Notes: generated by a model from the sequence alone, not told the origin. Shown: positions 33,495 to 48,925, counted from the first letter of the stretch. The stretch is DNA of 64,000 bases from Methanobacteriota archaeon (GCA_016207515.1 JACQPN010000002.1:12350-76349); one strand, 5' to 3'. Made by a program: numbers and translations.

Positions 33495-33581
33495 AGCAGG
33501 CCGTCGTCCTTTCCTCGGCGGCCCCGCGCTCACTTTCGAACATCCCCCCTTAGCCTTAAGACGGGCCTTTAGGTTCCCATC

Positions 33582-34061
33582 TTGATGGCCATGGCCCTCA
33601 AGAAACCCGTCGGTGTGAACGTGATGCTTGGAGTCGAGAACGTCGAGAAGACCGCGCACTTCTGGGAAGAGAACTTCGGGGCGAAGATCCGCGACCAGAT
33701 GAAGGCCCCAGATGGGACCTGGGTCCACGCGGGAACGAAGTTCGGCGAGTCCTACATCATGTGGGCCACGATCTCGCAGCCCGGAAGCATGAAGAAGGAG
33801 GACTGGCAGGCGTGGTCGGCAAAGCCTCGTTACAACGGCGTCAACGTCTACGTGAACGTGAAGAACGTGACGAAAGTCTGGGAGACGGCGAAGGCGAATG
33901 GAGCAGAGATCCGCGAACCCCTCACGGACCAGTTCTGGGGAGATCGGAACTTCACGTGCGTCGACAACAACGGCATCCTGGTGACCTTTGCCGAGAAGGT
34001 GAAGAACGTGACCGCGAAGCAGATGGCGAAGGCGCTCAAGGAATCGGGCCGCCCGCAGTAA
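33582..34061 (+). CDS. VOC-family (glyoxalase/bleomycin-resistance fold) protein
   Basis: 159 aa; beta-alpha-beta-beta-beta module pattern, conserved H/E metal-ligand positions. Confidence 0.7.
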   Translation: MMAMALKKPVGVNVMLGVENVEKTAHFWEENFGAKIRDQMKAPDGTWVHAGTKFGESYIMWATISQPGSMKKEDWQAWSAKPRYNGVNVYVNVKNVTKVWETAKANGAEIREPLTDQFWGDRNFTCVDNNGILVTFAEKVKNVTAKQMAKALKESGRPQ

Positions 34062-34209
34062 GCGTTTGGTAATACTGGTCCAACCCTCCGCTCATGGCGT
34101 AATCGCGGGACATCGTCGATTGCGCCCTGAGGCCGGCGGTGAGCGTCCGCGCGCCGCATGTCTTCGCACGGCTGGTTCTGCAGGTTCTCGAGGCCCGGTG
34201 TCGTCTGGT

Positions 34210-34635
34210 TCATGCCTGTTTCTTGCGACCCTTGGTCGGACTGAACGAGATGACCTTGATGCCGAGCTTTCTTGCGGCCTGCAACTGCCTGTCATCAGCG
34301 GAGACAAGGGTTCCTCCGGTGGAGACGGCTGCCTCTAGGTACTCCGCGTCGTAGTACGTCACGCCGGTGGCGGCATCCCAGACGCGATCGTCGTCGGTGT
34401 TCAACGGAATCAGGTCGATTCCGAGGAAGACGGCGCGGTGAAGCTCCTTGGCCTCGGCGACCTTCAGGTCGCGACACTCTTTCTGTATGACCCGTCCGAG
34501 CTCGCTGTATGCGATGTGTGGAGCTTGAAGCGCCATGCCTTTCGCCGAGGTTTCGCTAAGCCAGGCCCGAAACTCCTCCGATCCCGCCTCATCGAGGAAC
34601 GATTTTGCCAAAGCGCTGGCATCCAAGACGAACAT
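34210..34635 (-). CDS. vapC: PIN-domain toxin VapC
   Basis: ORF 34210..34707; start MFVLDASALAKSFLDE (PIN acidic residues D5, E/D ~40, D ~100). Confidence 0.8.
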   Translation of the reverse strand: MFVLDASALAKSFLDEAGSEEFRAWLSETSAKGMALQAPHIAYSELGRVIQKECRDLKVAEAKELHRAVFLGIDLIPLNTDDDRVWDAATGVTYYDAEYLEAAVSTGGTLVSADDRQLQAARKLGIKVISFSPTKGRKKQA

Positions 34636-34636
34636 C

Positions 34637-34846
34637 CTAGTGCTCCTCGCGAGCTTCCCGTACGACGTCAGCCACGGGACGACTTGCGGGCCGCCGGTAC
34701 TTCGCAAGGGTGGCGTTGCGACGATCGATTCGGAGTCTTTCTGCGAGCTTCGTGAGGTCCTCCTTCACGGTCTCGGCGATCTTGACTCCCGCCTCGTCGA
34801 GCTCGTGCTGTAGCGCATCTGGAATACGCACGCTGATTACACCCAT
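34637..34846 (-). CDS. vapB: ribbon-helix-helix antitoxin VapB (CopG-like)
   Basis: 69 aa, MGVISVRIPDALQHELDE...; stop 1 nt from vapC start. Confidence 0.75.
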   Translation of the reverse strand: MGVISVRIPDALQHELDEAGVKIAETVKEDLTKLAERLRIDRRNATLAKYRRPASRPVADVVREAREEH

Positions 34847-35005
34847 GTGTTTACATGGTTGTAAGACAAGATAAAGTTTACTGCTGGTTCTTACGGCCCA
34901 GGAGGGAAGTTGGTTGCACGGCGTGGGCGCCTTCGCGACCGACGTGCGAACCCGCCGACACCGCCGGTTAGTTATTTATACTTCGTCAGCGCACGTATAC
35001 ATTGT

Positions 35006-35209
35006 ATGCCAGAAGACACGATGCTTCGCGTCCCAGTGGCGGTTCGCGAGCGCCTGCGACGCTACGGCGTGAAGGGCCAGACGTACGCCAACATCCTGAC
35101 GAACCTGATGGACGAGTTTGACCATCGAGAGTTCGTGAAGGAACAAATCGCTTTGTTGGATGAGGCGATCGAGGAGAAGCCGCGCCTAGTTAACCTTCGA
35201 GACCTCTGA
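35006..35209 (+). CDS. antitoxin (RelB/ParD-like) of RelE module
   Basis: ORF 34910..35209, start placed at ATG 35006 (MPEDTMLRVPVAVRERLRRYG...); stop overlaps the toxin start (ATGA). Confidence 0.6.
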   Translation: MPEDTMLRVPVAVRERLRRYGVKGQTYANILTNLMDEFDHREFVKEQIALLDEAIEEKPRLVNLRDL

Positions 35210-35475
35210 TGCCTTACCGGGTGATCCTCGGGCGGCGCGCCGAAAAGAACCTTCGCGCGCTACGTGCCGATGAACGGGCGCGAGTCAAGGACGCTCTCCT
35301 CGTGCTGGAGGAAGACCCGATCCACCCCAGGCCCGGGGCGGACATCAAGCGGCTCAAGGGCACAAGACGCCTCTACCGCGTGCGCGTAGGCCCGTGGAGA
35401 GCCATCTATGGCATTCACGATGGCGACGTAATTATCACGGACTTCTTCAGGAAGAAGCGCGGATACGACATCTGA
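35209..35475 (+). CDS. relE: RelE/ParE-family toxin
   Basis: 88 aa; YRVRVGPWRAIYGIHDGDVIITDFFRKKRGY matches the RelE core. Confidence 0.8.
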   Translation: MPYRVILGRRAEKNLRALRADERARVKDALLVLEEDPIHPRPGADIKRLKGTRRLYRVRVGPWRAIYGIHDGDVIITDFFRKKRGYDI

Positions 35476-35617
35476 TCTGTCCATGCAGACGATGCAGATC
35501 GTCTTGGGGCGGACGGCCGCGCACCCTTGAACGCGAGACGGTTTCCAGCGTCGAAAACCCGATCTGCAGCGAGAGAATCCGCAAGTTCTATCGTCCGTCT
35601 CGGGGTAAGCGGGAAAC

Positions 35618-36847
35618 ATGGATCGTTCCAGCGGCCGCGTCCAAGTCGGCCTCGCGTTCCTCATCGTGTTCGTCGCGGGCTGCCTCGGCCCGCCGCCGAC
35701 GGGCGATGACGACGACGATGGACGGGACGAAGACCCTTCAACGGACCGACCGGGCGTGGGCGACAACGACGCTTCCGAGCATTTTGCGTCCGATGATGAC
35801 GGGTCTAACGAGGAGGGCGGCGACGACGACCCCGACGCCGCGTTCGAACGCGTCGAATGGAACCGCCGCATCAATGCGTCGTTTGCTCCGGTCGACTGCC
35901 CGAGGCCGCCCCGGCGCGAGTACAATGACACGTACTACAAGGGCCCGCTCATCGACACGCACATGCACATCCCGCACCTTCCCGATTCCCCGATCGGCGA
36001 GCCCGTGCCCGACGAGAAGATGCACCCCATCGCCGGTGTCAACGTCCGCATGGGCGAGATCGCGTGCCTCCTCAAGTGGGAGGGGACCAAGAGCGCCGTA
36101 TCGTTCTTCCCGGTATTCCCTCACATCGACTGGCAATCCCTCGAAGTCGTGAACCGGACGATGTCGCTCTATCCCGACCTCTTCATCCCGTTCATCATGG
36201 CGCCAGCCGCGAACGACGACCCACCGACCGTTGACGAGGGGCCACTTCGCGGAATGCTTGAGGTACATCCAGGGCTCTTCCGCGGCTATGGGGAAATCGG
36301 TCTCTACTCCCGCTCCGAAGGCGGACGCGACTTGAGGCCGGACGACCCCATCCTCAAACGCGTCTATCTCGTCCTCCGCGAACACAAGCTCGTCGCCTAC
36401 CTCCATCCCGGCGACGGCCACGCAGCCTCACTCGACGCGGTCCTCACGGAGAACCCGGACCTCAACCTCATCGTCCACGGAGACCAGATCGCGCCCGCTA
36501 TCGGCGCGTTGATGGACGCACACGACAACGTGTTCTTCACCGCGAACGACCTCTACGGCGACCAGTACCTGCTTCACCAGCGCGAGAACGCGACGACGTT
36601 CCTCGAAAAGACGAAGGACTTCGGCCCAATGCTTAGAAAGGATTGGGACGACTGGAAAGCGATCATCGAAGCGCATCCCGACCAGTTCATGTGGGGCACG
36701 GATCGGGGCGGCGTCGCGGTGTGGACGTACGACCACGCGGTCGGCGACCGGCTCTCGGATTACGGGCGCGCTTTCATCGGAGGACTCGATCCGGCCGTGC
36801 AGGAGAGGTTCGCTTTCAAGAACGCCGAGAGGCTGTTTTCGCGGTAG
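35618..36847 (+). CDS. secreted lipoprotein, amidohydrolase-superfamily (TIM-barrel metal-dependent hydrolase) domain
   Basis: Signal peptide plus lipobox (FVAGC), acidic low-complexity linker, then metal-binding His motifs (DTHMHIPH, HPGDGH, IVHGDQ). Confidence 0.7.
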   Translation: MDRSSGRVQVGLAFLIVFVAGCLGPPPTGDDDDDGRDEDPSTDRPGVGDNDASEHFASDDDGSNEEGGDDDPDAAFERVEWNRRINASFAPVDCPRPPRREYNDTYYKGPLIDTHMHIPHLPDSPIGEPVPDEKMHPIAGVNVRMGEIACLLKWEGTKSAVSFFPVFPHIDWQSLEVVNRTMSLYPDLFIPFIMAPAANDDPPTVDEGPLRGMLEVHPGLFRGYGEIGLYSRSEGGRDLRPDDPILKRVYLVLREHKLVAYLHPGDGHAASLDAVLTENPDLNLIVHGDQIAPAIGALMDAHDNVFFTANDLYGDQYLLHQRENATTFLEKTKDFGPMLRKDWDDWKAIIEAHPDQFMWGTDRGGVAVWTYDHAVGDRLSDYGRAFIGGLDPAVQERFAFKNAERLFSR

Positions 36848-37038
36848 CCGTGCGACGAGCCGCCGCGGGTCTTGGGGCGCCGAGCGCCAACCCTCTTGGC
36901 GACGCATGCCCGAGGGCAAACGAATGGACGCGCTTCAACGCCTGTGCTATAAATACCTCTCCGTGCATCGAAACGAGTGACGTCCAACTCGCCGCCTGAC
37001 AACCGGTGCGGGGCGACGCATCGTGCCAAGCGGAGTAG

Positions 37039-38187
37039 TTGAATTTGGACCTCGCCTGGAACCCGCTCGGCGCCATCGGCATCGTGGTGGGCGTCCTCGC
37101 TTGCGCCATGGCGGCGCTCGTGTGGAAGGCGCGGGCCGACCGGGCCCAAAACCGCTGGCTCGCGGCCTACCTCTTCGGCAACGGCTTGTACTTCGTCGCC
37201 TACAACGGCCTCCGACTCTTCGCGACCGATCCCCGTGACGCCTACGCGCTCATGGCCTCAGGTTGGTCGGTGAATCTGCTGTCCGTCGGAGGATACTTTG
37301 CCTTCCTCTCTACGTTGGATTCCCCTCTCGTCTCTTGGATGCGAAGGTACCGGATCGTGTGGGCCGTGATGGGCGGCTCTGCCCTGGTCGCGGCATATGT
37401 CGTCGTCCAGCCGGGTGCTTGGTTCCCGGGCGTGCAGCCACTCGGTGGTTTTTCGGGATGGGGCGCAGTCTCCTCCCCGCTTAGAAACCTCGTCCTCCTG
37501 GTCCTCACGGGCCTCTTTATCTTTTCCGCAGCGCCGGCGATCGACGCTTGGCGCCGAGCGAAGACGCCGCTCCTACGTCGCCAAGGTTGGATCTTTGGCG
37601 CCACGTTCGCGACGACATCGCTCGGTTGGGCGGCCTTCATAATATGGTACCTGGCCTCGGGAACGGGCACATTCACGCCGTTTGTCGTGGTCGTCAATTT
37701 CCTGTGGCAGGCCCTGCTTTCGCTTGCCCTCTCCCTTGGCCTTGCGTACGGGATCCTGAAGACCCAACTTTTCGACGTCGACATCAAGCTCAAGTGGACG
37801 TTGCGAAGCGGCACGCTCGCGGGCGCCTTCTTGGGCGTTTTCTTCGTGGCAAGCGAGGCAGCGCAATCGGTACTCTCCGCACAACTCGGTCCCATTGTCG
37901 GGCTCGTCGCAACGGGTGCTCTCGTGTTCGCGTTGGCACCGCTCCAGCGCGCCGCGGACAGGATCGCGGACAAGGCCATGCCGCGCGTTTCGGACGACGC
38001 CGAGTACAGGACGGTGAGAAAGCGCGAGGTGTACGCCGCGGCCGTCGAGAGTGCTCTCGAAGAGGGCGACATACGCCCGAAGGAGCGCGGGATGCTCGCG
38101 ACACTTGCGGACCAGCTTGGGCTAGGTCCGAAGGAGATGCACGAGATCGAGGTTGAGGCGCGTTCGGAAAGAGCGCGGGTGGCGTAG
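37039..38187 (+). CDS. array member A: polytopic membrane protein (~9 TM) with conserved C-terminal module
   Basis: 382 aa, TTG start; seven N-terminal TM helices, then conserved TM hairpin (FFVASEAAQ...ALVFALAPL) and cytoplasmic helical tail. Confidence 0.75.
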   Translation: MNLDLAWNPLGAIGIVVGVLACAMAALVWKARADRAQNRWLAAYLFGNGLYFVAYNGLRLFATDPRDAYALMASGWSVNLLSVGGYFAFLSTLDSPLVSWMRRYRIVWAVMGGSALVAAYVVVQPGAWFPGVQPLGGFSGWGAVSSPLRNLVLLVLTGLFIFSAAPAIDAWRRAKTPLLRRQGWIFGATFATTSLGWAAFIIWYLASGTGTFTPFVVVVNFLWQALLSLALSLGLAYGILKTQLFDVDIKLKWTLRSGTLAGAFLGVFFVASEAAQSVLSAQLGPIVGLVATGALVFALAPLQRAADRIADKAMPRVSDDAEYRTVRKREVYAAAVESALEEGDIRPKERGMLATLADQLGLGPKEMHEIEVEARSERARVA

Positions 38188-38316
38188 ATGCCCCTCTCGC
38201 CGGGTTTCCTCGTCACGCAGGCGACTACCCTCCTTCTCGTCGTGCTGGGCGCGTTCGTCCTGACCGTGCGACCGCGCACGCGTGCGCCGGCTTTCCCGGT
38301 CACGGAGGCGGCCTGA
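38188..38316 (+). CDS. array fragment B1: 42-aa ORF carrying only the family N-terminal TM motif
   Basis: ATG immediately after A stop; LLLVVLGAFVLTVRPRTRAP matches the N-terminal LG...L[RK]PRT motif of C-G; likely gene remnant or split gene. Confidence 0.35.
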   Translation: MPLSPGFLVTQATTLLLVVLGAFVLTVRPRTRAPAFPVTEAA

Positions 38317-38832
38317 GTGCACTTGCTCGACGCCGTGGGGCTCACCGACTCCGTTTCGGTGCTAGTGTTCACTCTCCTGGGCCTTTGGGTCCTTTCGCTT
38401 CGCTGGCGTTCGGCCACGAACATCACGTTCGCCGTCTGCGCGATCGCTTTCTCGGCGGGCATAGTCCCGGTCAATCTTTTCACCGCCCGGACTCACTTGG
38501 ATCCCCCCATATCCGCCGCCGCGGACGTCGTCGCGAAGCGCGCCGTCTCGATCACGCGCGACGGCGATCCCGTCCCGTGCCCCATCCCGACGCTGCCTTG
38601 CGACGCAGCGCCGCGCGGCGCGCCGATCCTGCCCGACGACACCCGATACTCGCTCGTCATCGGCGACTACGTCGCGCTCGGCGGCGACGGATACGACAGG
38701 CTCCCCGACCTCGGTGCGAGCGGCGCGCTCGAAGCGGACGTGCTCATTGAGCACCTCGAGCGCCTCGGCACGGTCGAGCCGCGCGTCGACGGCCGCGTGT
38801 GGCACGTCGCGCGACTTCAGGGGGTGCCCTGA
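38317..38832 (+). pseudogene. array fragment B2: family-like N-terminal TM segment fused in frame to a 5'-nucleotidase C-terminal-domain-like tail
   Basis: GTG after B1 stop; N-terminal TM (LVFTLLGLWVLSLRWRS), C-terminal YSLVIGDYVALGGDGYDRL...VDGRVWHV resembles the 5'-nucleotidase C-terminal domain; no conserved family C-terminal module. Confidence 0.35.
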
Positions 38833-40073
38833 TGCACTTGCTGGGCGAGGCCTGGTTCTCGTGGGTCTCCTTCGTGGTCGCCGATGTGATCCTCGTTGCG
38901 CTCGGCATTCTCGTGCTCCGGCTCAAGCCGCGGACGCCGGCGAGCTGGGCTCTTGGCGTCTTCGCGACCGCCTGGGGAGCCAACTTCATCGTGGCGCTCG
39001 CGCCGTTCTTCTTCGACATCGACCTTTCGAGGCCAGGGTATCTGGAGGGTCAAACCCTTCTTCGCGTCGTCCTGAGAGCCATCTCCGCCGGCGGCCTCGT
39101 GGCGATGATGCTGACCTTCCCGCGGGCCCTGCCGCGAGCCGAGCGCCGCGCCCTCGTCGGGCCCGCGATCTTTGGCGCGGTCTGGGCGTTTGTGCTCATC
39201 GCCCCGCGATGGGCGATCCCACCGTGGGCGCTCCTCGACGTGGGAACCGCGATTGTCGGGTACGGGTTCGTCTGGGCGTACCTGCTGCTTCTCACGTCCC
39301 GGTGGCGGCGCGCGACCGACGCGGGCGAACGGCACCAGATCGTGCTCACGTTCGTGGCGCTCGCGCTGGGCGTCAGTTTCCAAGCGGGACAATACGCGGG
39401 AGGCGCGAGCCAGCTCGCTTCGTCAGGCGTCCTGACGTTCGTGACCCAGCTTGCCCCACCCGTCTGGCTTGCGGTCGTCTGGCTCCGGGGGGCCCACGGG
39501 GCGCAAGCGCGCGTCGAGCGGAATCTCGCCATCCTCCCGCTCGCGCTCGCGTTCGTGGGATTCCTCGTGGGGAGGAGGAGCCCCTACGATCCCTCGGGCC
39601 TCCTCGCCCTTGGCACCGTCGCGATCCTCACCTATGCGATCGTGCGTCACCAAGTCCTCGGCATCGACGTCAAGCTCCGCTTCGCCATCAGCAAGTCCAC
39701 GGTCGCGGCCGTGTTCATCGCGGTTTTCTTCGTCGCGAGCGAAGCGGCGCAGCAGTTCTTCGGCGAAGCGTTCCAATCCAATTACGTGGGCATCCTGGCG
39801 GCGGGTGCTCTCGTGTTCGCGATCGCGCCGTTGTCGCGCCTCGCGGACCGGATCGCGGAGAAGGCGGTGCCGGTTCCCACGGCACCTCCGGAGCCCACGG
39901 GGCTACCTTTTCGCGAAAAGCTCTACCGGGATGCAGCGCGCTACGCGCTCCGAGACGGCACGATGACACGCATCGAGGAGTTGCATCTTGCCCAGCTTGC
40001 CGCCGAGCTCGGGCTGCGCGCGGATCGGGCGGTCGAACTGCGCCATGAGATCGAGGAGGAGATGAGGGCGTGA
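38832..40073 (+). CDS. array member C: polytopic membrane protein with conserved C-terminal module
   Basis: ATG overlapping B2 stop (ATGA); module ISKSTVAAVFIAVFFVASEAAQQFFGEAFQSNYVGILAAGALVFAIAPLSRLADRIAEKAVP plus tail YRDAARYALRDGTMTRIEELHLAQLAAELGL. Confidence 0.8.
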   Translation: MHLLGEAWFSWVSFVVADVILVALGILVLRLKPRTPASWALGVFATAWGANFIVALAPFFFDIDLSRPGYLEGQTLLRVVLRAISAGGLVAMMLTFPRALPRAERRALVGPAIFGAVWAFVLIAPRWAIPPWALLDVGTAIVGYGFVWAYLLLLTSRWRRATDAGERHQIVLTFVALALGVSFQAGQYAGGASQLASSGVLTFVTQLAPPVWLAVVWLRGAHGAQARVERNLAILPLALAFVGFLVGRRSPYDPSGLLALGTVAILTYAIVRHQVLGIDVKLRFAISKSTVAAVFIAVFFVASEAAQQFFGEAFQSNYVGILAAGALVFAIAPLSRLADRIAEKAVPVPTAPPEPTGLPFREKLYRDAARYALRDGTMTRIEELHLAQLAAELGLRADRAVELRHEIEEEMRA

Positions 40074-41356
40074 TCGTTTTCCACACGGAGTGGGACGCGA
40101 TCGTGAACGCGATTACGGCCGCGATCCTCGCGGGGTTCGGAGCCTGGATCTGGGCGCTTCGGCCGCGGACCCGACTCACCCGTATGCTCGCGCTCTTTGC
40201 CGTCGCGCACGGCGTTCTCTACACGTACATCAACTTGGTCGAGGTCCTCCCTGTGGGAGGCCCCGCTTGGATCGCGGATACGCTCCTCCGGGGCGCGCTC
40301 TTCGGGGCCGCCGCGTGGGGTCTGCTCGCGATGGGACGCGAAGTCCTGCGGCCTCTCGGCCCCGGGAGCGATCGTCTCTGGAAGGTCGCCGTCGCGACCG
40401 TCGGGATTCTCGCGGTCGTAATCACGGGCCCGGTGCTTTTTGGCCTCCCCGATTCCTCCCCTCTCGCCTGGGTCGCGATCGCCGCCGAGCTTTTCGGCCT
40501 CGCAACGTTCATTCTCGGATTCACCGCCCTTCCGGTCGTGTTTGTGTGGCTCTACCGGCAGCCCCTCGGGGAGGACGTTGAGCGGACGAGGCGCAACGCC
40601 ATCGTGATGAGCAACGCGCTCGTCCTCTGGCCGGCGCTCTATGGGATTGAGGCCGCGATCGGGGGCGGTATCGGCGGATACCTAGTTCTCATCGGTGTGG
40701 TCGCGCTCGGGCTCCTCTGGCTGGCCAACATCGGAGTCGATCCCCGGACAGCCCGCGAGGCTCGCGACGCGGCGCTTCTCGCCTTCGCCCTGCTCCTCAT
40801 CGGAACCGTCGACAGACTGATCCTCTCCGACGCGCTCGGCTACTCTCGCGCAGAGGGCCCGTTCTATGGAATCGCGCGCCTCCTGACGGTCGTCGCGCTC
40901 TCCTACGCCGTCCTGAAGCACTCCGTGCTCGGCTTCGACGTGAACCTACGCTTTGCAATCAGCAAGTCCACCATCGCCGCCGTCTTCGTCGCCGTCTTCT
41001 TCGTCGCGAGCGAAGCGGCGCAGCAGTTCTTCGGTGAAGCGTTCCAGTCGAGCTACGTGGGCATCCTGACGGCGGGTGCGCTCGTGTTCGCGATCGCGCC
41101 GTTGTCGCGGCTTGCGGACAGGATCGCTGAGAAGGCGGTGCCGATCGCGGAGGGCCGTCCCGCCGCCACGACGGCGAAGGAGGAAGCGTACAAACGCGCG
41201 TTGCGCATCGCGCTGCGGGACCGCAAGCTCACGCGCGAGGAGGACATCCACGTGCACGAGCTCGCGGAGCACCTCGGCATCGGCGCAGGCCGAGCGATGG
41301 CATTGCGTGTAGAGATTGAACGCGAATTGGCCGCATCGACCGGAGGCGGGACTTGA
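40070..41356 (+). CDS. array member D: polytopic membrane protein with conserved C-terminal module
   Basis: GTG overlapping C stop (GTGA); C-terminal module nearly identical to C and E2 at protein and DNA level. Confidence 0.8.
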   Translation: MIVFHTEWDAIVNAITAAILAGFGAWIWALRPRTRLTRMLALFAVAHGVLYTYINLVEVLPVGGPAWIADTLLRGALFGAAAWGLLAMGREVLRPLGPGSDRLWKVAVATVGILAVVITGPVLFGLPDSSPLAWVAIAAELFGLATFILGFTALPVVFVWLYRQPLGEDVERTRRNAIVMSNALVLWPALYGIEAAIGGGIGGYLVLIGVVALGLLWLANIGVDPRTAREARDAALLAFALLLIGTVDRLILSDALGYSRAEGPFYGIARLLTVVALSYAVLKHSVLGFDVNLRFAISKSTIAAVFVAVFFVASEAAQQFFGEAFQSSYVGILTAGALVFAIAPLSRLADRIAEKAVPIAEGRPAATTAKEEAYKRALRIALRDRKLTREEDIHVHELAEHLGIGAGRAMALRVEIERELAASTGGGT

Positions 41357-41595
41357 CGATTCCGCTCGGCCGGATCCTCAACCTCGCCGGGAGCTCGGTG
41401 ATTGTGCTGCTCGGGCTCGCCGTCGCATTCCTTGGCCGAGGACGAGGTCCAGACCTTGGAGTGACTCGGTTCTCCATCGGCATCGGCGGGCTCGCTCTCG
41501 CGAAGCGCCACATGCGCGACCTTGTGGCCACCTGGGCGGGAGAGGACGCAACTGGTCGCGAAGCGGCGCCCGACTTGGAGGCGCGGTCCCCGTGA
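41353..41595 (+). CDS. array fragment E1: 80-aa ORF with family N-terminal TM motif
   Basis: TTG overlapping D stop; LAGSSVIVLLGLAVAFLGRGRG matches the family N-terminus; ends at TGA overlapping the GTG of E2. Confidence 0.4.
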   Translation: MTIPLGRILNLAGSSVIVLLGLAVAFLGRGRGPDLGVTRFSIGIGGLALAKRHMRDLVATWAGEDATGREAAPDLEARSP

Positions 41596-42932
41596 ATCTG
41601 CTCTCCGGGGCCCTCGTGCCCGCCTACGCCGGGACCCTCACAAACCTGCTCCTCGCTGCGGCTCTCCTCAGGTGGGGCCCAAGGCGGGGGGCATCGGTCT
41701 GGTTCGTCGCTTTCCTGGTCGCGGACGGCGTTGGCCTGGCGCTCAACGCAATCGAGAACCACGTCTTCCAGACCTTCGACGCCACCACGTCGAGCGCGTC
41801 AGAGATCGAAGCGACACGGGCGCTACTCACGGGGCTCGATGTCGCCGTGGGCGTTCTGCTCGTCTCTGCCCTGTTCCTGATCGTTTTCGCAACGATCGAA
41901 TTCTTGGGGCGCGCCCCGCGATGGCTGGCACCGGCGGTCCTCGCGACCGCGAGCACGGCGGCGCTCTGGGGGATTCTCGACCCTCCCGCAGGATACTTCC
42001 TCCGCGAGGGCCGCCTCATACACGTCGTCGACTCCTCCTATTTCTTCCTCACAACGCTTCCTGCCTTCGCAAGCCAAGGCGTCGCGCTTCTCGTGCTCGC
42101 GCGGCGACCAGCCGGCGATCCCAGCTCACCCACGCGCCGCTCTCACCTCCTCCTTGGCATCGGTCTCCTCGTGTATCCTCTTCATCGTGGCGCCTATCTT
42201 GTGGTGGACTACTTCCTCGACCCGCTGTCTGTAGCGCGAGTAACTGCCTCCAATCGGTTCGTCCTGCTCGGCGAGCTGGCGACCGCCGTGTTCCTCCTCT
42301 TCGCCGCCTACCTTGCCATCATGCGGCTTGCACGCACACATCCCGAGCACGCGGGCCTCGTTCTCGCGGCCGGCGTGGGCCTCGGCTCCGGGATACTGCG
42401 TGCCCTGACGGATGCGCTCCCGTCCTACTTCTATTTCGGCGTCGCGAACCTCGTGCTGCCGCTCGTCGCTACGTACGCGCTGCTCCGGCACAACCTGTTC
42501 GGTCTCGATTTCAGGGTTCGGTGGGCGATCTCGAAGTCCACGATCGCGGCGGTCTTCATCGCCGTCTTCTTTGTGGCGAGCGAGGCGGCGCAGCAGTTCT
42601 TCGGCGAAGCGTTCCAATCCAATTACGTTGGCATCCTGGCGGCGGGTGCTCTTGTGTTCGCGATCGCACCGTTGTCGCGGCTTGCGGACCGGCTCGCTGA
42701 GAAGGCGGTGCCGGTGGCCGCCGGAACCGGGCCCGTCGAGGCGAGCGCGTCCGACACGCGCGGAGCCGACGCGTACCGACACGCGGTGCGCTTGGCGCTT
42801 CGCGACCGGCGCCTCACGCCCGGTGAAGAGGTCGCTTTGGCGCACGTCGCGCAGGGTCTCGGACTCACGCCTGTTGAGGCCATTCGGCTCCGCCACGAGG
42901 TCGAGGCGGAGACCGGGAAGGAGGTGCGCTAA
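41592..42932 (+). CDS. array member E2: polytopic membrane protein with conserved C-terminal module
   Basis: In-frame part of ORF 41316..42932 starting at GTG 41592; C-terminal module identical over long stretches to C and D. Confidence 0.75.
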   Translation: MNLLSGALVPAYAGTLTNLLLAAALLRWGPRRGASVWFVAFLVADGVGLALNAIENHVFQTFDATTSSASEIEATRALLTGLDVAVGVLLVSALFLIVFATIEFLGRAPRWLAPAVLATASTAALWGILDPPAGYFLREGRLIHVVDSSYFFLTTLPAFASQGVALLVLARRPAGDPSSPTRRSHLLLGIGLLVYPLHRGAYLVVDYFLDPLSVARVTASNRFVLLGELATAVFLLFAAYLAIMRLARTHPEHAGLVLAAGVGLGSGILRALTDALPSYFYFGVANLVLPLVATYALLRHNLFGLDFRVRWAISKSTIAAVFIAVFFVASEAAQQFFGEAFQSNYVGILAAGALVFAIAPLSRLADRLAEKAVPVAAGTGPVEASASDTRGADAYRHAVRLALRDRRLTPGEEVALAHVAQGLGLTPVEAIRLRHEVEAETGKEVR

Positions 42933-42990
42933 ACTGGCTCTCGACGCGCGGTTCGTAATCACCGCAGGAAGCGGCGCGCTATGGGGCCTC

Positions 42991-44166
42991 ATGGGTGTCG
43001 TGATCCTCGCACTCGGCAGGAGCCGACGGGAGAACGTGGCGCTGGGGGCCCTCGCCCTATCGTTTGGTGCGATGTTCGTGTCGAACAACCTCGCCTTCGA
43101 GCCCGGAGCTGACGCGCTCCCAGTCATGTGGGGCTCGGCCCTCTTGGCCGTTGTCGCCGGTCTCGCCGCCCTCGCCGTGGCATGGACGACAGAGGGCCTC
43201 CCACGCGCGCCGGTCGTCGTCGCGGGAGCCGTCGGGGCCGCTTGGCAGCTCCTCGTGCCGATGGGACCCGTGTACGCGGCGGTGAACGCGGCGCGCTTCC
43301 CGCAGCCCGTGGCGGCGGCGTTCTTCACGAACGTCGCGTCTCCGCTTTTCGTCATCGCGTTGGCGCTCCTCATCGGGCTCCTTGCCGCCTTCGCCCTCGC
43401 CCCGAGGAGACTCGCGATGGGTGATCCGCGCCGTCCGCCGCGAAGGCTTCTGATGTACGCGTTCGGCCTCTACCTCGCGTACTCGATGGGCGCCAACGTG
43501 GTCGCGTACGACTTGAGCGGCTATGTCGTACTCTTCCCACTCGTCGTCGCACTTGCGGTGGCGCTGCTCGTCGCTGGCGCCGCGCCGGGCGGGCTGCCCG
43601 AACGTGACGGGGCGCTCGTCATCCTCGCGGCGGGCCTCGCCGGCGCGATCTCCGAGACCTGGGGAGGGGCGACCACGTCGGGCCTTGGCGTCGGCATCCT
43701 CCGCATCGTCGGCGTTGCGGTCCTTGCGTACTCCGTGTTCCGCTACGACCTCCTCGGCGTGCCGCTCCCGCGTATCGCCGAACACCGCGGCAGCCTTGCG
43801 ATGGCCTCGCTGGCCTCGCTCTTCATCGTCGCGCAGATCGCGGAGAACTACCTCAGCGCGGAGTACGGCCTCTTGATGGGTGGCGTGGTGGCGGGCGCGC
43901 TCCTCTTCGCCGCGAACCCCATACAACGGGCGATGGAGAGGACGACCGCTCCGGTCGGGCCCCATCGTGCTCCGGCGACGGTCGAGCGCCGCGAGGAGAG
44001 CGAGCGTGCCTACAGGGTGGCGTTACGCCGCTTCCTCGTTGACGGGGATATCAGCGCGGAGGAGGAGATCGCCTTGGCCCACCTTGCGGATGAGGCGGGC
44101 GTGACGGTGCGGCGAACAATCGAACTCCGCCACGAGGTCGAGCGCGAGTTGGGGAGGCGGGGCTGA
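42991..44166 (+). CDS. array member F: polytopic membrane protein with conserved C-terminal module (start uncertain)
   Basis: First in-frame ATG after E2 stop is 42991; homology to G begins at CTG 42934 (LALDARFVITAGSGALWGL vs VLDLSAASLVRAGSGVLFL), so the start may be non-canonical or lost. Confidence 0.7.
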   Translation: MGVVILALGRSRRENVALGALALSFGAMFVSNNLAFEPGADALPVMWGSALLAVVAGLAALAVAWTTEGLPRAPVVVAGAVGAAWQLLVPMGPVYAAVNAARFPQPVAAAFFTNVASPLFVIALALLIGLLAAFALAPRRLAMGDPRRPPRRLLMYAFGLYLAYSMGANVVAYDLSGYVVLFPLVVALAVALLVAGAAPGGLPERDGALVILAAGLAGAISETWGGATTSGLGVGILRIVGVAVLAYSVFRYDLLGVPLPRIAEHRGSLAMASLASLFIVAQIAENYLSAEYGLLMGGVVAGALLFAANPIQRAMERTTAPVGPHRAPATVERREESERAYRVALRRFLVDGDISAEEEIALAHLADEAGVTVRRTIELRHEVERELGRRG

Positions 44167-45417
44167 TTGGTTCTCGACCTCAGCGCGGCTTCGCTCGTTC
44201 GCGCGGGAAGCGGTGTACTGTTTCTCCTTGTCGGGCTCGCGATGATCGGCCTCGGTCGTCGGAAGCGCGAGAACCTGGCCGTCGGTGTGGCGGCAGTCGC
44301 GTTCGGCCTTGCTTTCGTCGTCAACAACATCGATCCGTCAGGCTCGGTCGTCGCGCAGATCGTGCTTGCCCTGGTTTGCGCCGCCGCGCTCGCCGTGCCG
44401 GTGGCTTCCTCGAAAAGGGCCGCCGCGTTCACGGCATTTGTCGCGCTGTCGCTTGTCGGACTCCTCGCGCTATCGACGCCAGCCCAAGTCGTCGGCTTCG
44501 CGGGAGTTCCCATCCCACCTGAGGCTTGGACGGGTTATTACCAGTCCCTCTTCGGCTACCTCCCAATGGTGGCGGCGGTCCTTGGGTACGCTCTGATGCA
44601 GGCGCTGCGATGCAGTAGCGAGTCGGACGAGTGCAGCGCCCGGGCATCAGCGCTTCTTGTCGCCGGGTGGGGGATCTATCCTGCCTTCCTCACGGGCGGA
44701 CAGGTTGCCATCGTTGCGACGCTTCGGTTCGGGCTGACGCCTCCCGGGCTCGCGACCACGGGCGTCCTTGCCCTCGCCGTCGCGGTCATCGTGGCGATGC
44801 TCCTCTACTCGACGCGCCGCACGAAGAGAGCCCGTAATGTCGCGTGGCTTCTCCTGGCATGCGAACTGGCCGGGATGGTGGATCAGGGCTTGGGCGGGAC
44901 CTATGTCACTCCATGGGTCGGTGTCGCGCGCTCGATTGGTGCGGTGATGATTGCGGTGGCGGTCTTTCGCGAGGCGGCACTAGGTTTTGAACTCGGTCTT
45001 CCGACGATCCGCCGCGGAACGACGGCGACGGTGGTTCTCGCGGGCTTCTTCATCGTCGCCCAGATCGCGCAGAACTTCTTGAGTGATGAGTACGGGCTGG
45101 TGATGGGGGGCGTGGTCGCGGGAGCGCTGCTTTTCGCGGCGAACCCCATCCAGCGCGCGATCGAGAGGGACTGGGCCGACCGTGCGCAAGCCACCACATC
45201 AGCGGCGTTTCCCATGGCAAGGGGGGCGCCGGCCGCCGCGACGGCGAGCAAGGAGGAGGCGTACCGCAACGCGCTGCGTATCGCGCTACGTGACCGCGTC
45301 CTCACGGAAGACGAGGAAGTCCAACTCGCGCATCTTTCCGACGAATTGGGCCTCACGCATAGGCGGGCAAGAGAGATCCGAAACGAGGTGCAGCGCGAGG
45401 CCGGGGCGCGGGAGTAA
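44167..45417 (+). CDS. array member G: polytopic membrane protein with conserved C-terminal module
   Basis: TTG right after F stop; C-terminal module FFIVAQIAQNFLSDEYGLVMGGVVAGALLFAANPIQRAIER plus tail EEAYRNALRIALRDRVLTEDEEVQLAHLSDELGL. Confidence 0.8.
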   Translation: MVLDLSAASLVRAGSGVLFLLVGLAMIGLGRRKRENLAVGVAAVAFGLAFVVNNIDPSGSVVAQIVLALVCAAALAVPVASSKRAAAFTAFVALSLVGLLALSTPAQVVGFAGVPIPPEAWTGYYQSLFGYLPMVAAVLGYALMQALRCSSESDECSARASALLVAGWGIYPAFLTGGQVAIVATLRFGLTPPGLATTGVLALAVAVIVAMLLYSTRRTKRARNVAWLLLACELAGMVDQGLGGTYVTPWVGVARSIGAVMIAVAVFREAALGFELGLPTIRRGTTATVVLAGFFIVAQIAQNFLSDEYGLVMGGVVAGALLFAANPIQRAIERDWADRAQATTSAAFPMARGAPAAATASKEEAYRNALRIALRDRVLTEDEEVQLAHLSDELGLTHRRAREIRNEVQREAGARE

Positions 45418-45680
45418 CGACGTCCAATGCAAGGCACGTCCTCGGGGCCCCCTCTGGTCGGTCCTTTACCGCGCGGGAGGACAGGGGTCCCAACTCGCGT
45501 TGACCCTGCCATTACCGAAGACGTGTAACAGGTACGAATTGAACGGTACACCGTGCGGTGCGTGCGAACGGAACGGTCCCTCTAGCCGAGATTGCGACGC
45601 CTCACGCGAACGGCCGCGGCGAATCGCGCCCTCGTTATTTTCATATAGAAGAACCATTCTATAACGCTTCCGTGACGTAG

Positions 45681-46232
45681 ATGCCCACCAATCTTCCGGA
45701 CGACTGGCGAAAGAGGCGCAAGGAAGGCGACAAGGACCCCTTCTTCGAGATGTTCGGCGACATGGACGCTGAATTCGAGCGCATGCGCGTCTACATGAAC
45801 AAGATGATGGAGGACGCGATGAAATCGCCCGGAATGAAGCTGGGCGAGCCGTACGTCTACGGTTTCAGCCTCAAAGTAGGCCCCGACGGAAAGCCGCGCA
45901 TCCAGGAGTTCGGGAACACGAAGCCCTTGGCGACGGCACCGGAGGAGGCGGGCCGCGAACCGCTCACCGACGTCATCGAGGACGAAAAGACCGTCTCGGC
46001 CACGTTCGAGATCCCCGGCGTCGAAAAAGACGAGATCCAACTCCACGTCACGGAGGACAAGTTGACGATACGCGTGAACACGCCCAAGCGGAAGTACCAC
46101 AAGGAAGCGGACCTACCGGCGCGAGTGAAGCCCGAGACGACGGAGGCGACGTACAACAACGGAGTCCTCGACGTAGTGATCCAAAAGGCGGCGGAGAAGG
46201 CGCCGGCGGGAAAACGCGTGCAGATTAAGTGA
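45681..46232 (+). CDS. small heat shock protein (Hsp20/alpha-crystallin family)
   Basis: 183 aa; alpha-crystallin domain (TVSATFEIPGVEKDEIQLHVTEDKLTIRVN ... ATYNNGVLDVVIQK); TATA-like elements 20-40 nt upstream. Confidence 0.9.
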   Translation: MPTNLPDDWRKRRKEGDKDPFFEMFGDMDAEFERMRVYMNKMMEDAMKSPGMKLGEPYVYGFSLKVGPDGKPRIQEFGNTKPLATAPEEAGREPLTDVIEDEKTVSATFEIPGVEKDEIQLHVTEDKLTIRVNTPKRKYHKEADLPARVKPETTEATYNNGVLDVVIQKAAEKAPAGKRVQIK

Positions 46233-46293
46233 ATCACGCGCGTGGCCATTGTCGGTCAGAAGGTCGGTTTCTGTCCCCGACTCCTGTGTCGCC

Positions 46294-47175
46294 TTACTTG
46301 ATTTCGGCTGGCCTCAGGCTGTAGCATCGCCCCGGTCCCATGTCGTAGTGCACGAGTTGCGCCGCGCCGCCGCTTTCCCCAAGTATCGACCCGGACTCGA
46401 CCTGGTAGTTCGCAAACGCGGATAGGCCGATGAAGGGGGCCAGCGTGAGATCGAGCGCACCGGTGACGGCGCGCTTGGAAACGGTGAAGAGTCGGTACGA
46501 GACCTCCTCTCCCCCAGTGCTGTTCGCAACAGGGCCGCGGAAAGAGAACGTGAGGTCGCCGAAAGCCGCCCTTGCATCGATGGACTCGACGCCGGGCGCA
46601 GTTACCGAGGCTTGGGAGGTCGTTGTGACCTTGTCGACGGATAGATTTCGCGCGGCGTAGGCCTTGACGAGGTCGGCCGAGGCCACACCGTGGCGCAGGA
46701 ACACGCGGTAATTATTGATTTCGGGGACGCGGTACGAATCGGGTGGATCCGCGTAGACATAGACGAGCGATTCCTGGTGGTTCTTGATCTCTCCATCGGG
46801 GGTGAGCGCCCGCGAACACCGGGTGACGACGAGTGCGCCCTGGGCCGTCCCCGGCGCTCCGCCCGCGAAGGGGACTGGCTCGAAGCCGGGCGGGAGGAAC
46901 GCGGCGACGCGTTCGGCCTGGAAGGCGACGGCCGCCACCAGGAGCGTGCACCCTTCTCCAGTCATGTTCCAAACGACGGCTGGAGCGAGGCTAGCGTTGC
47001 CGTCCTCCATCTCGTCACCAGCGGTCGGCGTCCCCGGGTCTGTCGAAGTGTCGCCCGCCGTGCCATCGCCGCCGGGAGTTCCGTCACCGCGCGGGGATTC
47101 GGGCTCACCCAAGCATCCGGCGAATGGCGCCAGGAGCATGATCGTGCTGATAAAGAGACTGAAGACCCGGTCCAT
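46294..47175 (-). CDS. secreted lipoprotein, hypothetical
   Basis: ORF 46294..47199; signal peptide plus lipobox (LLAPFAGC), Gly/Thr/Asp-rich linker. Confidence 0.6.
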   Translation of the reverse strand: MDRVFSLFISTIMLLAPFAGCLGEPESPRGDGTPGGDGTAGDTSTDPGTPTAGDEMEDGNASLAPAVVWNMTGEGCTLLVAAVAFQAERVAAFLPPGFEPVPFAGGAPGTAQGALVVTRCSRALTPDGEIKNHQESLVYVYADPPDSYRVPEINNYRVFLRHGVASADLVKAYAARNLSVDKVTTTSQASVTAPGVESIDARAAFGDLTFSFRGPVANSTGGEEVSYRLFTVSKRAVTGALDLTLAPFIGLSAFANYQVESGSILGESGGAAQLVHYDMGPGRCYSLRPAEIK

Positions 47176-47244
47176 TTCTTGGTTTCCCTTGTGCCTCACG
47201 AAGACCGCCGAATCTTATCTCGTTTATGGCAAGCGAGTATCGGG

Positions 47245-48621
47245 TCAGGCCGTCGTCAACCGCGCGCCCGTGATGACGTGGCCATTCCCGTGTCTGGCGT
47301 TCCACACGGCAAAAGCGCCTTGACCTTCGGCAAGTGCCACGAGCCCCATGTAGTCGCCCGTCGTTCGAGTCGTGCCTTCGTGCGCGTCGAGCGTGATGCG
47401 CTCCGACATGTTGCCATTCGCCGCGATGGCTACGGCCCGAAGGGTGGCGCTTAGTGTGGTCCCTTCGCCCATCGGGAACCAGTAGGTGACGATTGCGCTC
47501 CCGTCGCGCGTGGCCGCGAGAGCGGGCGATGTCCGGGCGGCGGCCTGCGTCGACTCGATTTCGATGGCTACGCTCCATGTTCGCCCGCCGTCGTCCGACC
47601 AGCGCAGCGTCACGATCTGCGGCACGTCGGGCTGTCCGTTCGTTTCGCCCGTCATCGGGTAGGCCATGTAGATTCGCTCGCCGGTCGGCCCCGGCCCGAT
47701 GGTCTTTGCGAGGACCGGGAATTTCGTCGTGCTGTCGATCGACGTGTTCGTCGTCCATGATGCGCCCCTGTCCGTGGAGACGGCTAAATGGATCTTAGCA
47801 TCGTCCGTCTCTCGGTACGAAACGACGCATGATCCGTCGTCGAGCACGAGCGGGAACGCCCCGGAGGAGACGCCCCGGTAGATTTCGCTCGGCGGCGACC
47901 ATGTCCGGCCGCCGTCTGTGGAACTCGCCGCATAGGTCTGCGTACAACCCTCGAAGCAAGCGGACGTCCGTTGCTCGTTGCGGTTCCACGCCATGAGGAC
48001 GGTACCGTCCGCGCCCGAGGCTAGCCATTGTTTGTCGAATTCGATGCGGCCTGCACCGTAGGCGGGCGAAACCGCGTCCGAGCCTTGCTGCAGGATGCTC
48101 GCCTCGGGGAAGCTTTGACCACCGTCCGAAGAGCGCCAAAGCGCGATCGAGGCTGCGGTCGAGGCGATGCCCCGCCCGTCCACGGATTCAAAATTGAAAA
48201 CGAGGGCGGTGTACAGGACGGTCCCATCGGCTAGGATGAGGACGGCCGGATCGTCCGCGTGGTCGTATGCGACGAGAGGATGGGTCGGCGGTGCGTCGCG
48301 TCCCATGGGAAGCCGCATCGTCGCCCAAGTGGCGCCACCGTCCTTGCTCACGTGCGCGAGCGGCCACGAGTACGGCTTGCCTTGCGCGTCGAACCCCTGG
48401 TCCATGCTGGCAGCGACGATCGTTTTCCCGTCCCGGGGGTCGGCCGCGACCGCGGGTTCCCAACGCGTGCCCTTGTCGATGACGACGGCGCACGGCGAGG
48501 GGCAGGAGAGGACAGGGCGGTGGTCTGGTTCCGGCTGCTGTTTCCGTGTTTGCTCGGCGCATCCGCTCACGACGACCAGTATGAGGACCACGAGTGTGAT
48601 CGGGGCACGCGGGCTCTGCAT
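47245..48621 (-). CDS. secreted lipoprotein with BNR/Asp-box repeats (sialidase-like beta-propeller), paralog of 28893..30878
   Basis: ORF 47245..48804; start ATG 48621 before signal/lipobox (VVVSGC); Asp-boxes SKDGGATW, SSDGGQSF, STDGGRTW, STDRGASW, SDDGGRTW. Confidence 0.8.
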   Translation of the reverse strand: MQSPRAPITLVVLILVVVSGCAEQTRKQQPEPDHRPVLSCPSPCAVVIDKGTRWEPAVAADPRDGKTIVAASMDQGFDAQGKPYSWPLAHVSKDGGATWATMRLPMGRDAPPTHPLVAYDHADDPAVLILADGTVLYTALVFNFESVDGRGIASTAASIALWRSSDGGQSFPEASILQQGSDAVSPAYGAGRIEFDKQWLASGADGTVLMAWNRNEQRTSACFEGCTQTYAASSTDGGRTWSPPSEIYRGVSSGAFPLVLDDGSCVVSYRETDDAKIHLAVSTDRGASWTTNTSIDSTTKFPVLAKTIGPGPTGERIYMAYPMTGETNGQPDVPQIVTLRWSDDGGRTWSVAIEIESTQAAARTSPALAATRDGSAIVTYWFPMGEGTTLSATLRAVAIAANGNMSERITLDAHEGTTRTTGDYMGLVALAEGQGAFAVWNARHGNGHVITGARLTTA

Positions 48622-48925
48622 CAATCCGGGGAGGCGTAGACAGCCCCCCTCCTTATCGGTTCCGCCAACGACGGTCACAACAGGCCCGCCGGGATAGGGG
48701 CCACCGACGATTGCCACCCTCTTCCACGAGCCGGTCGCGCGGGGCGAGCGCGAGACGCGACGAAGGTCACCCGCCCCGAGACCTCTCGACCTCGTTCCCA
48801 GCACCGCAGTGGTCGACAGCTCACAAGCGCTTCCTCTCGATTGCCCGGCTTCGCCTCGCAGCGTGTGAACTCCGGCGGTAGCGCTTTAACGGATTGTTCT
48901 ACTACTGAGCTCAAGGATCCGGGGG

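Follow-up and report, generated by a model that had tools for sequence, protein, structure and literature searches.

Why should a tandem array of membrane-protein genes hold members far too short for their family, together with one member whose homology begins at a CTG? The question is raised by a stretch of 64,000 nucleotides from a Methanobacteriota archaeon (GCA_016207515.1 JACQPN010000002.1:12350-76349), the whole of which is referred to below as the window and which belongs to a Thermoplasmatota/"Euryarchaeota" MAG (locus tags HY556_007xx). A first-pass annotation had named pseudogenisation, sequencing frameshifts, and genuine split genes or recoding as possible explanations, and the coordinates it gave for B1, E1 and F are all borne out by the sequence. 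The short ORFs and the start of F are probably the products of birth-and-death decay within one operon-like tandem array, which has the following features:

36946 to 36954, plus strand: TATA-like box CTATAAATA; no other AT-rich promoter-like element lies upstream of the array.
37039 to 38187, plus strand: A, a full-length A-type member of 382 aa from TTG 37039, with an alternative start at TTG 37045.
38188 to 38316, plus strand: B1, a 42-aa stub whose first ~35 aa (TM1 and the RPRTR motif) are a B-type N-terminus, with TGA a few codons on.
38317 to 38832, plus strand: B2 (HY556_00765), a 171-aa chimeric ORF whose stop overlaps the ATG of C (TGATG).
38832 to 40073, plus strand: C (HY556_00770), a complete member of 413 aa with its own N-terminal motif.
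40070 to 41356, plus strand: D (HY556_00775), a complete member of 428 aa in GTGA overlap with C.
41353 to 41595, plus strand: E1 (HY556_00780), an 80-aa degenerate stub in TTGA overlap with D and GTGA overlap with E2.
41592 to 42932, plus strand: E2 (HY556_00785), a complete member of 446 aa from GTG 41592, with its own N-terminal motif.
42919 to 42926, plus strand: SD-like motif AGGAGGTG, the strongest in the array; CTG 42934 follows at a spacing of 7 nt.
42934 to 44166, plus strand: F (HY556_00790), a full-length F/G-type member of 410 codons counted from CTG 42934.
44167 to 45417, plus strand: G (HY556_00795), a full-length member and the closest paralog of F, with TTG 44167 directly after the TGA of F.

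Six paralogs in the array are thus full length (A, C, D, E2, F and G; 382-446 aa), all on the plus strand. In this family, whose proteins measure ~370-450 aa, a 7TM-like N-terminal bundle is followed by two conserved TM helices (AISKST..FFVASEAAQ..GALVFA.APL) and a ~60-aa helical TerB-like tail, the last two elements forming the C-terminal module. The N-terminal motif, at the very start of the protein, runs from a short tail through TM1 and a basic cluster (RPRxR or GRRxR) to TM2. An N-terminal HMM of the family, run against 10,083 ORFs, matches the six paralogs at E = 3e-10 to 5e-21 (A, 9e-15; C, 3e-16), and the corresponding C-terminal HMM matches them at E = 5e-53 to 3e-71 (A, 1e-58; C, 3e-71); an AF2 model of D has a pLDDT of 86. 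Pfam, NCBIfam and PADLOC have no model for the family, its C-terminal helices giving only TerB matches below threshold and weak matches to PDC-S48. The top match to the TerB domain (PF05099), that of E2, scores 20.2 bits against a cut-off of 24.4, and at the level of sequence the likeness to TerB is a resemblance only. The array family is one of uncharacterised Thermoplasmatota membrane proteins.

B1, B2 and E1 depart from this architecture in that the C-terminal HMM, with all filters off, finds no match in any of them; they are therefore fragments, and not members of the family in a functional sense. B1, whose ATG (38188) directly follows the TAG of A (38185-38187), matches the N-terminal HMM at E = 1e-6 and is omitted from the NCBI annotation. 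It is matched best by full-length genes of other MAGs, at their N-termini (L011 1467-2789, with 58% over 33 aa and E = 2e-8; L022; L023), and in both L022 and L023 the best homolog of A is followed immediately by the best homolog of B1, so that B1 occupies the place expected for a full B-type gene. In E1, a weak but in-register likeness to an F/G-type N-terminus (TM1, GRGRG and the start of TM2) covers residues ~2-45 (E = 0.03 with the F/G-subtype HMM; tblastn E = 1.5e-4 against a full-length L018 member at its N-terminus). The general N-terminal HMM gives nothing for E1 at E < 0.01 and no homology was detected for its 30-aa tail, and on these statistics its family membership looks marginal. 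The earlier description of B1 and E1 as encoding only the family N-terminal TM motif consequently stands for B1, and for E1 as regards the lack of a C-terminal module, the motif itself being recognizable in E1 only at this weaker level. Neither the tails of B1 and E1 nor that of a stub in L018 could be derived from the C-terminal tail of the family, since the C-terminal HMM with filters off gave no match. The L018 tail AVEREWIEGGAV does look like AMERDIVGARGVA, a visual and anecdotal resemblance.

The stubs have only ~10-20% of the length of a normal family member. They were also considered as recent duplicates of paralogs in the window and rejected as such after the first 60 codons had been compared as DNA and as protein: each is as far from every paralog as the paralogs are from one another, so the stubs are not recent copies, and N-termini of full-length genes in other MAGs match each of them better than the window paralogs do.

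The composition of B2 bears most directly on how such fragments arise. A family N-terminus (TM1, basic cluster and TM2; N-terminal HMM E = 1e-8) makes up its residues 1-57, and its residues 74-168 (nt 38536-38820) come from the very C-terminal end of a 5'-nucleotidase, aligning without gaps and at 55% identity with residues 439-533 of the 533-aa protein P0071, which itself matches Pfam 5_nucleotid_C at E = 1e-31. All PDB matches of B2 fall on 5'-nucleotidase C-termini. The likeness to 5'-nucleotidase/UshA proteins (PF02872 with PF00149) extends over the last 95 residues and includes GGDGY and the terminal DGR. In contrast to those enzymes, B2 has no metallophosphoesterase domain (no Metallophos match was found) and has lost the remainder of the substrate-binding domain (of the 158 profile positions in PF02872, ~132-155 alone are detectable), so that it is a fragment and not an enzyme. 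Judged from these alignments, B2 is demonstrably a deletion fusion of a family N-terminus in frame with the 3' end of a 5'-nucleotidase gene. A 5'-nucleotidase gene was sought elsewhere in the window and beside other arrays, and the weak tblastn matches obtained (window 27991, L019 and L031) proved unrelated. B2 is a singleton among 5.8 billion protein clusters.

That B2 is itself an N-terminal fragment fused to foreign sequence, and that C and E2 have complete N-terminal motifs, had gone unremarked in the first-pass annotation. Its suggestion of genuine split genes is at odds with this arrangement: B2, C and E2 each begin with an N-terminal motif of their own, and C and E2 are complete genes of normal length, so nothing is split.

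Comparison with other arrays gives the stubs no conserved orthologs. The E2 ortholog in L011, the nearest relative, shares 80% protein and 81% DNA identity with E2 in an alignment that begins at window position 41577. At the position of E1, L011 has a different ORF of 35 codons, of which only the last ~19 nt can be aligned; the idea that the E1 tail is homologous to this ORF (a stub plus an ancient sORF) was dropped, as the alignments are no better than those of shuffled sequences outside these ~19 nt. The possibility that B1 and E1 are conserved independent small genes, raised earlier, fails for E1 on this comparison, E1 also being a singleton among the 5.8 billion protein clusters. Relics of the same kind recur with different members affected: L018 carries a 57-aa A-type stub, whose GTG lies directly after the upstream TGA and which is in TGATG overlap with the next gene, L005 has a 33-aa ORF and L006 a 153-aa ORF. 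The array therefore resembles gene remnants in prokaryotic birth-and-death arrays in its tandem paralogs, its lineage-specific losses and the partial genes kept within it, in the degradation of different members in each genome (the window, L018, L005, L006 and L011), and in the fusion of B2 to a neighbouring gene. It differs from them in that each of the three remnants still has its frame open, with a start, an SD motif and exact stop/start junctions on both sides, and in that the family is uncharacterised.

On the preferred reading, B1, B2 and E1 would be the remains of three further paralogs from which large deletions took almost everything past the first one or two TM helices. For B2, a 5'-nucleotidase gene would formerly have stood upstream of C; the deletion would have fused the last ~95 codons of that gene, in frame, to the family N-terminus, and B2 would for this reason stop at the stop of the 5'-nucleotidase gene, which overlaps the ATG of C. 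The tails of B1 and E1 are too short to trace to the 3' end of a gene, so the in-frame internal deletion route is demonstrated for B2 only, and the order of the deletions is one that we infer from the present arrangement. The deletion products that survived would be those in which the stop/start geometry was left intact. Pseudogenisation, among the explanations first offered, is thus the one that gains from the stub lengths, from subtypes that are full length elsewhere, from the lack of conserved orthologs and from the B2 fusion.

The geometry in question is uniform along the array. Stop/start distances at the eight junctions are, in order, 0, 0, -1, -4, -4, -4, +1 and 0 nt. The TGA of B1 (38314-38316) is followed in the same frame by GTG 38317 of B2, and at E1 the start TTG 41353 sits in the TTGA overlap with the stop of D and the terminal GTGA (41592-41595) contains the GTG start of E2; of the two stops earlier said to overlap the next start, that of E1 does so, and that of B1 abuts it at a distance of 0. 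SD-like motifs precede 8/8 internal starts (8.6% of background positions), with GGAGG at -17 to -5 in six of the eight (2% of background positions), and the GGAGG ahead of the B2 start lies within the B1 tail. The TATA-like box upstream of A is probably the single promoter of an A-G operon, as the internal junctions contain no comparable element and no T-run terminator. Reinitiation is reported to operate in a window of about -8 to +6 nt, and coupling is lost in Haloferax at a gap of ~22 nt (PMC10666635). All eight junctions fall within the -8 to +6 nt distance defined there for co-directional coupled pairs. The array shares with described coupled overlapping pairs (Huber et al. 2019, PMC6728339; PMC10666635) the junction types ATGA/GTGA/TTGA (-4), TGATG (-1) and 0 to +1, an SD within the 3' end of the upstream gene and distances in the experimentally permissive range. 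The published pairs, however, consist of two functional genes, often for subunits of one complex, whereas some upstream genes here are relics of 42-80 codons, one downstream start is a CTG, and coupling is read from the sequence. Translational-coupling geometry has thus probably been preserved despite decay; it would support termination-reinitiation, such that ribosomes could still pass from gene to gene. A 92-nt untranslated gap with its own SD at the equivalent place in L048 indicates that coupling is not strictly needed by the family.

The remaining irregularity lies at the start of F. The TAA of E2 (42930-42932) is followed by A 42933 and CTG 42934, and there is no in-frame ATG, GTG or TTG between this stop and ATG 42991. 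As the first-pass annotation had it, homology between F and G begins at the CTG after the E2 stop and ATG 42991 is the first canonical in-frame start: the alignment runs from CTG 42934 in F and TTG 44167 in G, G having TTG where F has CTG, and the start predicted by the HMM is exactly CTG 42934, a position held by ATG, GTG or TTG in 48 of ~50 family members. It is possible, if doubtful, that F is translated from ATG 42991, or is already a silent pseudogene, CTG 42934 being a dead start codon in either case. ATG 42991 is the choice of both PGAP and the Logan gene caller (the NCBI model of F starts there and gives 391 aa), and in E. coli CUG initiates very poorly, at ~1-2% of AUG (Hecht et al., 10.1101/063800). 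Against this, ATG 42991 lacks an SD and, at 58 nt past the E2 stop, is beyond reinitiation range, and a start there removes TM1 of the conserved 7TM-like bundle; the 19 codons upstream of it are 50% identical to G (9 of 18 aligned columns) as compared with 39% overall, and the strongest SD of the array is placed for the CTG. F resembles cases of near-cognate CUG initiation (Hecht et al., 10.1101/063800) in having a CTG where homologs have ATG/GTG/TTG, behind a canonical SD at optimal spacing, and differs from them in that the known efficiency is that of E. coli and use of the CTG in F is deduced from conservation and SD placement only. F would accordingly be an intact gene in which the ancestral start, placed 1 nt past the E2 stop as is typical of the family, mutated to CTG. 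Most likely its translation still begins at CTG 42934, if less efficiently, with the strong SD and reinitiation after E2 as aids; failing that, F may be in an early stage of silencing. In a member from L017 homology also starts at a CTG right after a stop, preceded there by an ATG-initiated mini-ORF of 6 codons.

The stubs are still open and retain start codons, SD motifs and a coding-like GC3 > GC1 > GC2 pattern, suggesting that they may be maintained and not merely decaying. An extension of this point, which we regard as unlikely, is that they are now selected as bridging frames and not for their peptides, relaying ribosomes and holding the next SD in their tails. Each stub lies within -4 to 0 nt of its neighbours at both ends and has an SD-like motif for the next gene in its tail; the same architecture is seen in L018 (57 aa), L005 (33 aa) and L011 (35 aa) with unrelated peptides, so that the geometry recurs without the sequence, and coupling collapses beyond a gap of ~20 nt (PMC10666635). 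The same geometry, however, arises automatically from in-frame deletions, and chance survival of open frames of 35-80 codons in 67% GC DNA is ~0.16-0.45 by a base-composition estimate. The L048 array has its 92-nt gap and own SD instead, and the examples are few and were gathered post hoc. The fuller proposal, in which short relic ORFs are kept as relay frames for termination-reinitiation and a CTG 1 nt past a stop and behind a strong SD could work there as a start, we consider rather improbable.

A function for the products themselves is a poor prospect. B1, B2 and E1 could be imagined as small membrane proteins, each a neofunctionalised TM helix or hairpin that, for example, modulates the full-length paralogs, in keeping with their intact starts and SD motifs, the hydrophobic TM1 followed by a basic cluster, and the annotation of B2 and E1 as genes by NCBI. 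E1 and B2 are nevertheless singletons in their cluster set, the closest relative L011 lacks the E1 peptide, the stubs of other arrays come from different subtypes, and the C-terminal part of B2 is a fragment of an enzyme domain unable to fold alone.

An artefact of sequencing or assembly, in which collapsed or chimeric MAG repeats create the stops or frameshifts, is very improbable. It has in its favour a ~270-nt stretch that is common to the paralogs at 78-92% identity and at which short-read assemblies break. The stub junctions, on the other hand, fall in unique sequence and are spanned by independent Logan contigs (L003, 31358-39755; L001 and L002, 41005-42614; L004, 42599-49751) assembled from two runs, SRR12113385 and SRR12113390; at B1/B2, at E1 and at the start of F these contigs match the window with 100% identity. 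The runs, perhaps from the same site as the MAG, exclude random error but may share a fixed population-specific state. The sequencing frameshifts suggested by the first-pass annotation are further contradicted by the repaired frames, which would have two tandem N-terminal motifs, a duplication seen in no family member. Programmed recoding (TGA read-through from B1 to B2, which share a frame with one TGA between them, or a frameshift from E1 to E2) is scarcely credible, as the fusions, with two N-terminal motifs in tandem, would be unlike any of the ~77 members examined, no slippery heptamer is seen at 41585-41600, B2, C, D, E1 and F all have TGA as their ordinary stop, and C and E2 are complete on their own.

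For annotation, decay as the preferred reading means that a gene-remnant label is due to B1, B2 and E1, with B2 noted as a chimera with a 5'-nucleotidase fragment, and that either the annotated start of F is probably wrong or F is start-codon defective. Current understanding would change only if the relay or the CTG reading were confirmed experimentally, and the array offers a natural test case of whether translational coupling constrains gene decay in operons and of near-cognate CTG use after termination in archaea. For the family, the array records rapid, lineage-specific turnover among uncharacterised 7TM-like membrane proteins of the Thermoplasmatota.

The array stems from an uncultured archaeon filed under the name 'Euryarchaeota archaeon' (its relatives carry the labels Thermoplasmatota or Methanobacteriota) and lies on a contig of 337,851 bp, with locus tags HY556_00765 to HY556_00795. 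Between 37039 and 45417 nine ORFs succeed one another on the + strand with zero intergenic space:

ORF calls of the tandem membrane-protein gene array
37039-38187, + strand, A
38188-38316, + strand, B1
38317-38832, + strand, B2 (HY556_00765)
38832-40073, + strand, C
40070-41356, + strand, D
41353-41595, + strand, E1 (HY556_00780)
41592-42932, + strand, E2
CTG 42934 or ATG 42991 to 44166, + strand, F
44167-45417, + strand, G

Every coordinate in the first-pass annotation was correct on checking, including those of the B1/B2 junction; the junction had wrongly been read as an overlap, as the TGA of B1 directly precedes GTG 38317 without a change of frame. The start of G differs by pipeline (TTG 44167, 416 aa, in NCBI vs ATG 44242, 391 aa, from the Logan gene caller), and the family alignment and SD support TTG 44167 as the probable start. 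Both the window (45681-47199 and 47245-48804, via the matching Logan contig L004) and the related locus L006 (7690-8052 and 16993-18543) have DUF2200 and BNR/sialidase-like genes on the flanks of the array, hinting at a conserved genomic neighbourhood. Toxin-antitoxin modules (PIN/VapC or ParE, each with antitoxin) lie beside or among family genes in several unrelated MAGs (window 34210-35475; L005 1566-2065, 3413-4063 and 14046-14438; L048 120-757 and 5290-5921).

The full-length paralogs A, C, D, E2, F and G (382-446 aa; 24-31% identity to A in the alignment) share an N-terminal motif of TM1, a basic cluster and TM2, and a strongly conserved C-terminal module of two TM helices and, behind them, a helical tail of ~60 residues. 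Neither Pfam nor NCBIfam has a model for the family; on E2 the tail gives only a sub-threshold Pfam match to TerB, and AlphaFold models D with confidence (pLDDT 86). The C-terminal ~70 aa of A, D and G weakly match the candidate defence system PDC-S48 in PADLOC (E = 1e-6 to 3e-4). Homologs are nearly confined to Thermoplasmatota MAGs, mostly as tandem arrays, that at L005 holding at least 12 copies with toxin-antitoxin modules in between. Bacterial MAGs (Gemmatimonadota, Longimicrobiales, Woeseiaceae, Actinomycetes; loci L034, L035, L040, L041, L044, L045 and L047) also hold the C-terminal module, with different N-terminal regions. A ~270-nt stretch encoding AISKST..FFVASEAAQQFFGEAFQS..APLSRLADR is common to C, D and E2 at 78-92% nucleotide identity (39627-39899, 40898-41170 and 42468-42740), with gene conversion and strong purifying selection as the two candidate causes.

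Of the explanations first offered for the truncated members, pseudogenisation in a rapidly evolving array best accounts for the stubs B1, B2 and E1: they are remnants of deleted paralogs whose full-length counterparts persist in other MAGs. N- and C-terminal module HMMs, applied to every stop-to-stop ORF in the window and in 48 related loci, find in B1 the N-terminal motif alone (E = 1e-6) and in B2 the same motif as its sole family module (E = 1e-8). E1 gives no match to the general N-terminal HMM, aligns in register from residue 2 to an F/G-subtype HMM (E = 0.03) and by tblastn matches a full-length L018 gene at its N-terminus (E = 1.5e-4); judged by these scores it is the more degenerate. 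None of the three is a recently copied window paralog. Each has better matches at the N-termini of complete genes from other MAGs: B1 matches L011 1467-2789 (58% over 33 aa, E = 2e-8), L022 10700-11932 and L023, the first 60 aa of B2 match L021 563-1810 (E = 7e-9), and E1 matches F/G-type genes (L018 7941-9182, L015, L005). In L022 and L023 the best A homolog is directly followed by the best B1 homolog, so B1 sits where a complete 'B-type' gene once stood.

B2 is a chimera of ~57 family residues, a short linker and a 5'-nucleotidase C-terminal piece. The last ~95 codons of a 5'-nucleotidase gene lie within it (38536-38832): its residues 74-168 align gaplessly at 55% identity to residues 439-533 of a 533-aa 5'-nucleotidase (P0071; Pfam 5_nucleotid_C, E = 1e-31), and an independent PDB sequence search places them on the extreme C-terminus of 5'-nucleotidases; B2 thus ends at the nucleotidase gene's own stop codon, which overlaps the ATG of C (TGATG). 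This is direct evidence for an in-frame deletion that fused two neighbouring genes. No other 5'-nucleotidase gene occurs elsewhere in the window or beside the other arrays examined. B1 and E1 plausibly arose by the same route, which the C-terminal module search could not prove because their tails are too short.

The homology of F, reported to begin at CTG 42934, does so exactly by HMM prediction. The equivalent position is ATG, GTG or TTG in 48 of ~50 family members (TTG in G), and the CTG lies 1 nt past the TAA of E2 and 7 nt past AGGAGGTG, the best SD of the array. NCBI starts F at ATG 42991 (MBI4392321.1, 391 aa), which lies 58 nt past the E2 stop, has no SD and would remove TM1. Over the 19 codons from CTG to ATG, identity to G is 50%, vs 39% for the whole protein; either translation still covers these codons, or the T-to-C change happened recently. 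In E. coli, initiation at CUG reaches ~1-2% of that at AUG (10.1101/063800); we found no archaeal measurement. Taken together, the HMM start, SD, codon conservation and weak CUG initiation moderately favour the view that F is intact and starts, at reduced strength, from CTG; translation from ATG 42991, or silence, is possible at a lower probability. In a second family member (L017 2805-2930) homology likewise begins at a CTG right after an in-frame TAG (ATG GCC TCG GAG GGG CGG TAG CTG), and starting at GTG 2919, its earliest canonical start, would remove TM1. A nonsense mutation close to the N-terminus may explain this, or else a mini-ORF of 6 codons with reinitiation at the CTG.

The eight internal junctions measure 0, 0, -1, -4, -4, -4, +1 and 0 nt. 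Each of the eight internal starts is preceded at 5-10 nt by an SD-like motif (relaxed; 8.6% background), six of them by GGAGG (vs 2% of array positions), and the sole TATA-like element (36946-36954) lies ~90 nt upstream of A, with none at internal junctions. These features fit a single polycistronic unit with putatively coupled translation. Termination-reinitiation coupling, demonstrated in Haloferax and E. coli, works only across overlaps or tiny gaps, and in Haloferax a distance of ~22 nt all but abolishes it (PMC6728339; PMC10666635). Deletions that fall out of frame would interrupt the ribosome chain and hence be selected against, and the surviving relics would be the in-phase ones. That relics are actively maintained as bridging 'relay' ORFs is a stronger claim than mere survival, and an unlikely one. 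The closest available relative, L011, has an E2 ortholog (80% identical protein, 81% DNA) whose alignment begins just 15 nt before the GTG of E2. Upstream lies a different 35-codon ORF without the TM motif, overlapping the preceding gene (ATGA) and the E2 ortholog (GTGA), with nothing alignable to E1 beyond the last ~19 nt. This argues against E1 as a conserved small gene: between window and L011 a bridging ORF of equal geometry is conserved and the E1 peptide is not. In a set of 5.8 billion protein clusters E1 and B2 are both singletons, and B1 is not called by NCBI annotation. Other loci have comparable relics: a 57-aa A-type stub in L018 (GTG directly after TGA, then TGATG), a 33-aa ORF in L005 and, in L006, a homologous 153-aa ORF still with two pieces of C-terminal tail; L048 has a plain 92-nt gap. 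MAG binchicken_co125_887 holds the 80% identical E2 ortholog (L011 164-1468), its best match to D (40070-41356) is only ~47-51% identical (L008 5719-6912), and its gene order differs (E2 ortholog, then B-type gene); this points to divergence at uneven rates, a reshuffled array or the transfer of individual members.

The other explanations first offered are not supported. Split genes are contradicted by C and E2, each complete with the whole N-terminal motif in its usual position and the C-terminal module, so the stubs are not their missing halves; a B1-B2 or E1-E2 fusion would carry two tandem N-termini, a form found in none of ~77 family members examined. Against recoding, no slippery heptamer is seen at 41585-41600 and TGA is the ordinary stop of five array ORFs. 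Sequencing frameshifts find no support in the Logan assemblies of two different SRA runs, which match the window at 100% identity over 31358-39755, 41005-42614 and 42599-49751 and so across the B1/B2, E1/E2 and F-start sites, and are broken only within the ~270-nt C/D/E2 stretch.

The initial observation is real and beyond chance. It has an ordinary meaning: an archaeal gene array that evolves fast contains what is left of deleted paralogs, one such remnant being fused to a piece of a 5'-nucleotidase, and a mutated start codon. What stays mildly interesting is the stop/start coupling geometry kept consistently around the relics, together with the SD-backed CTG.
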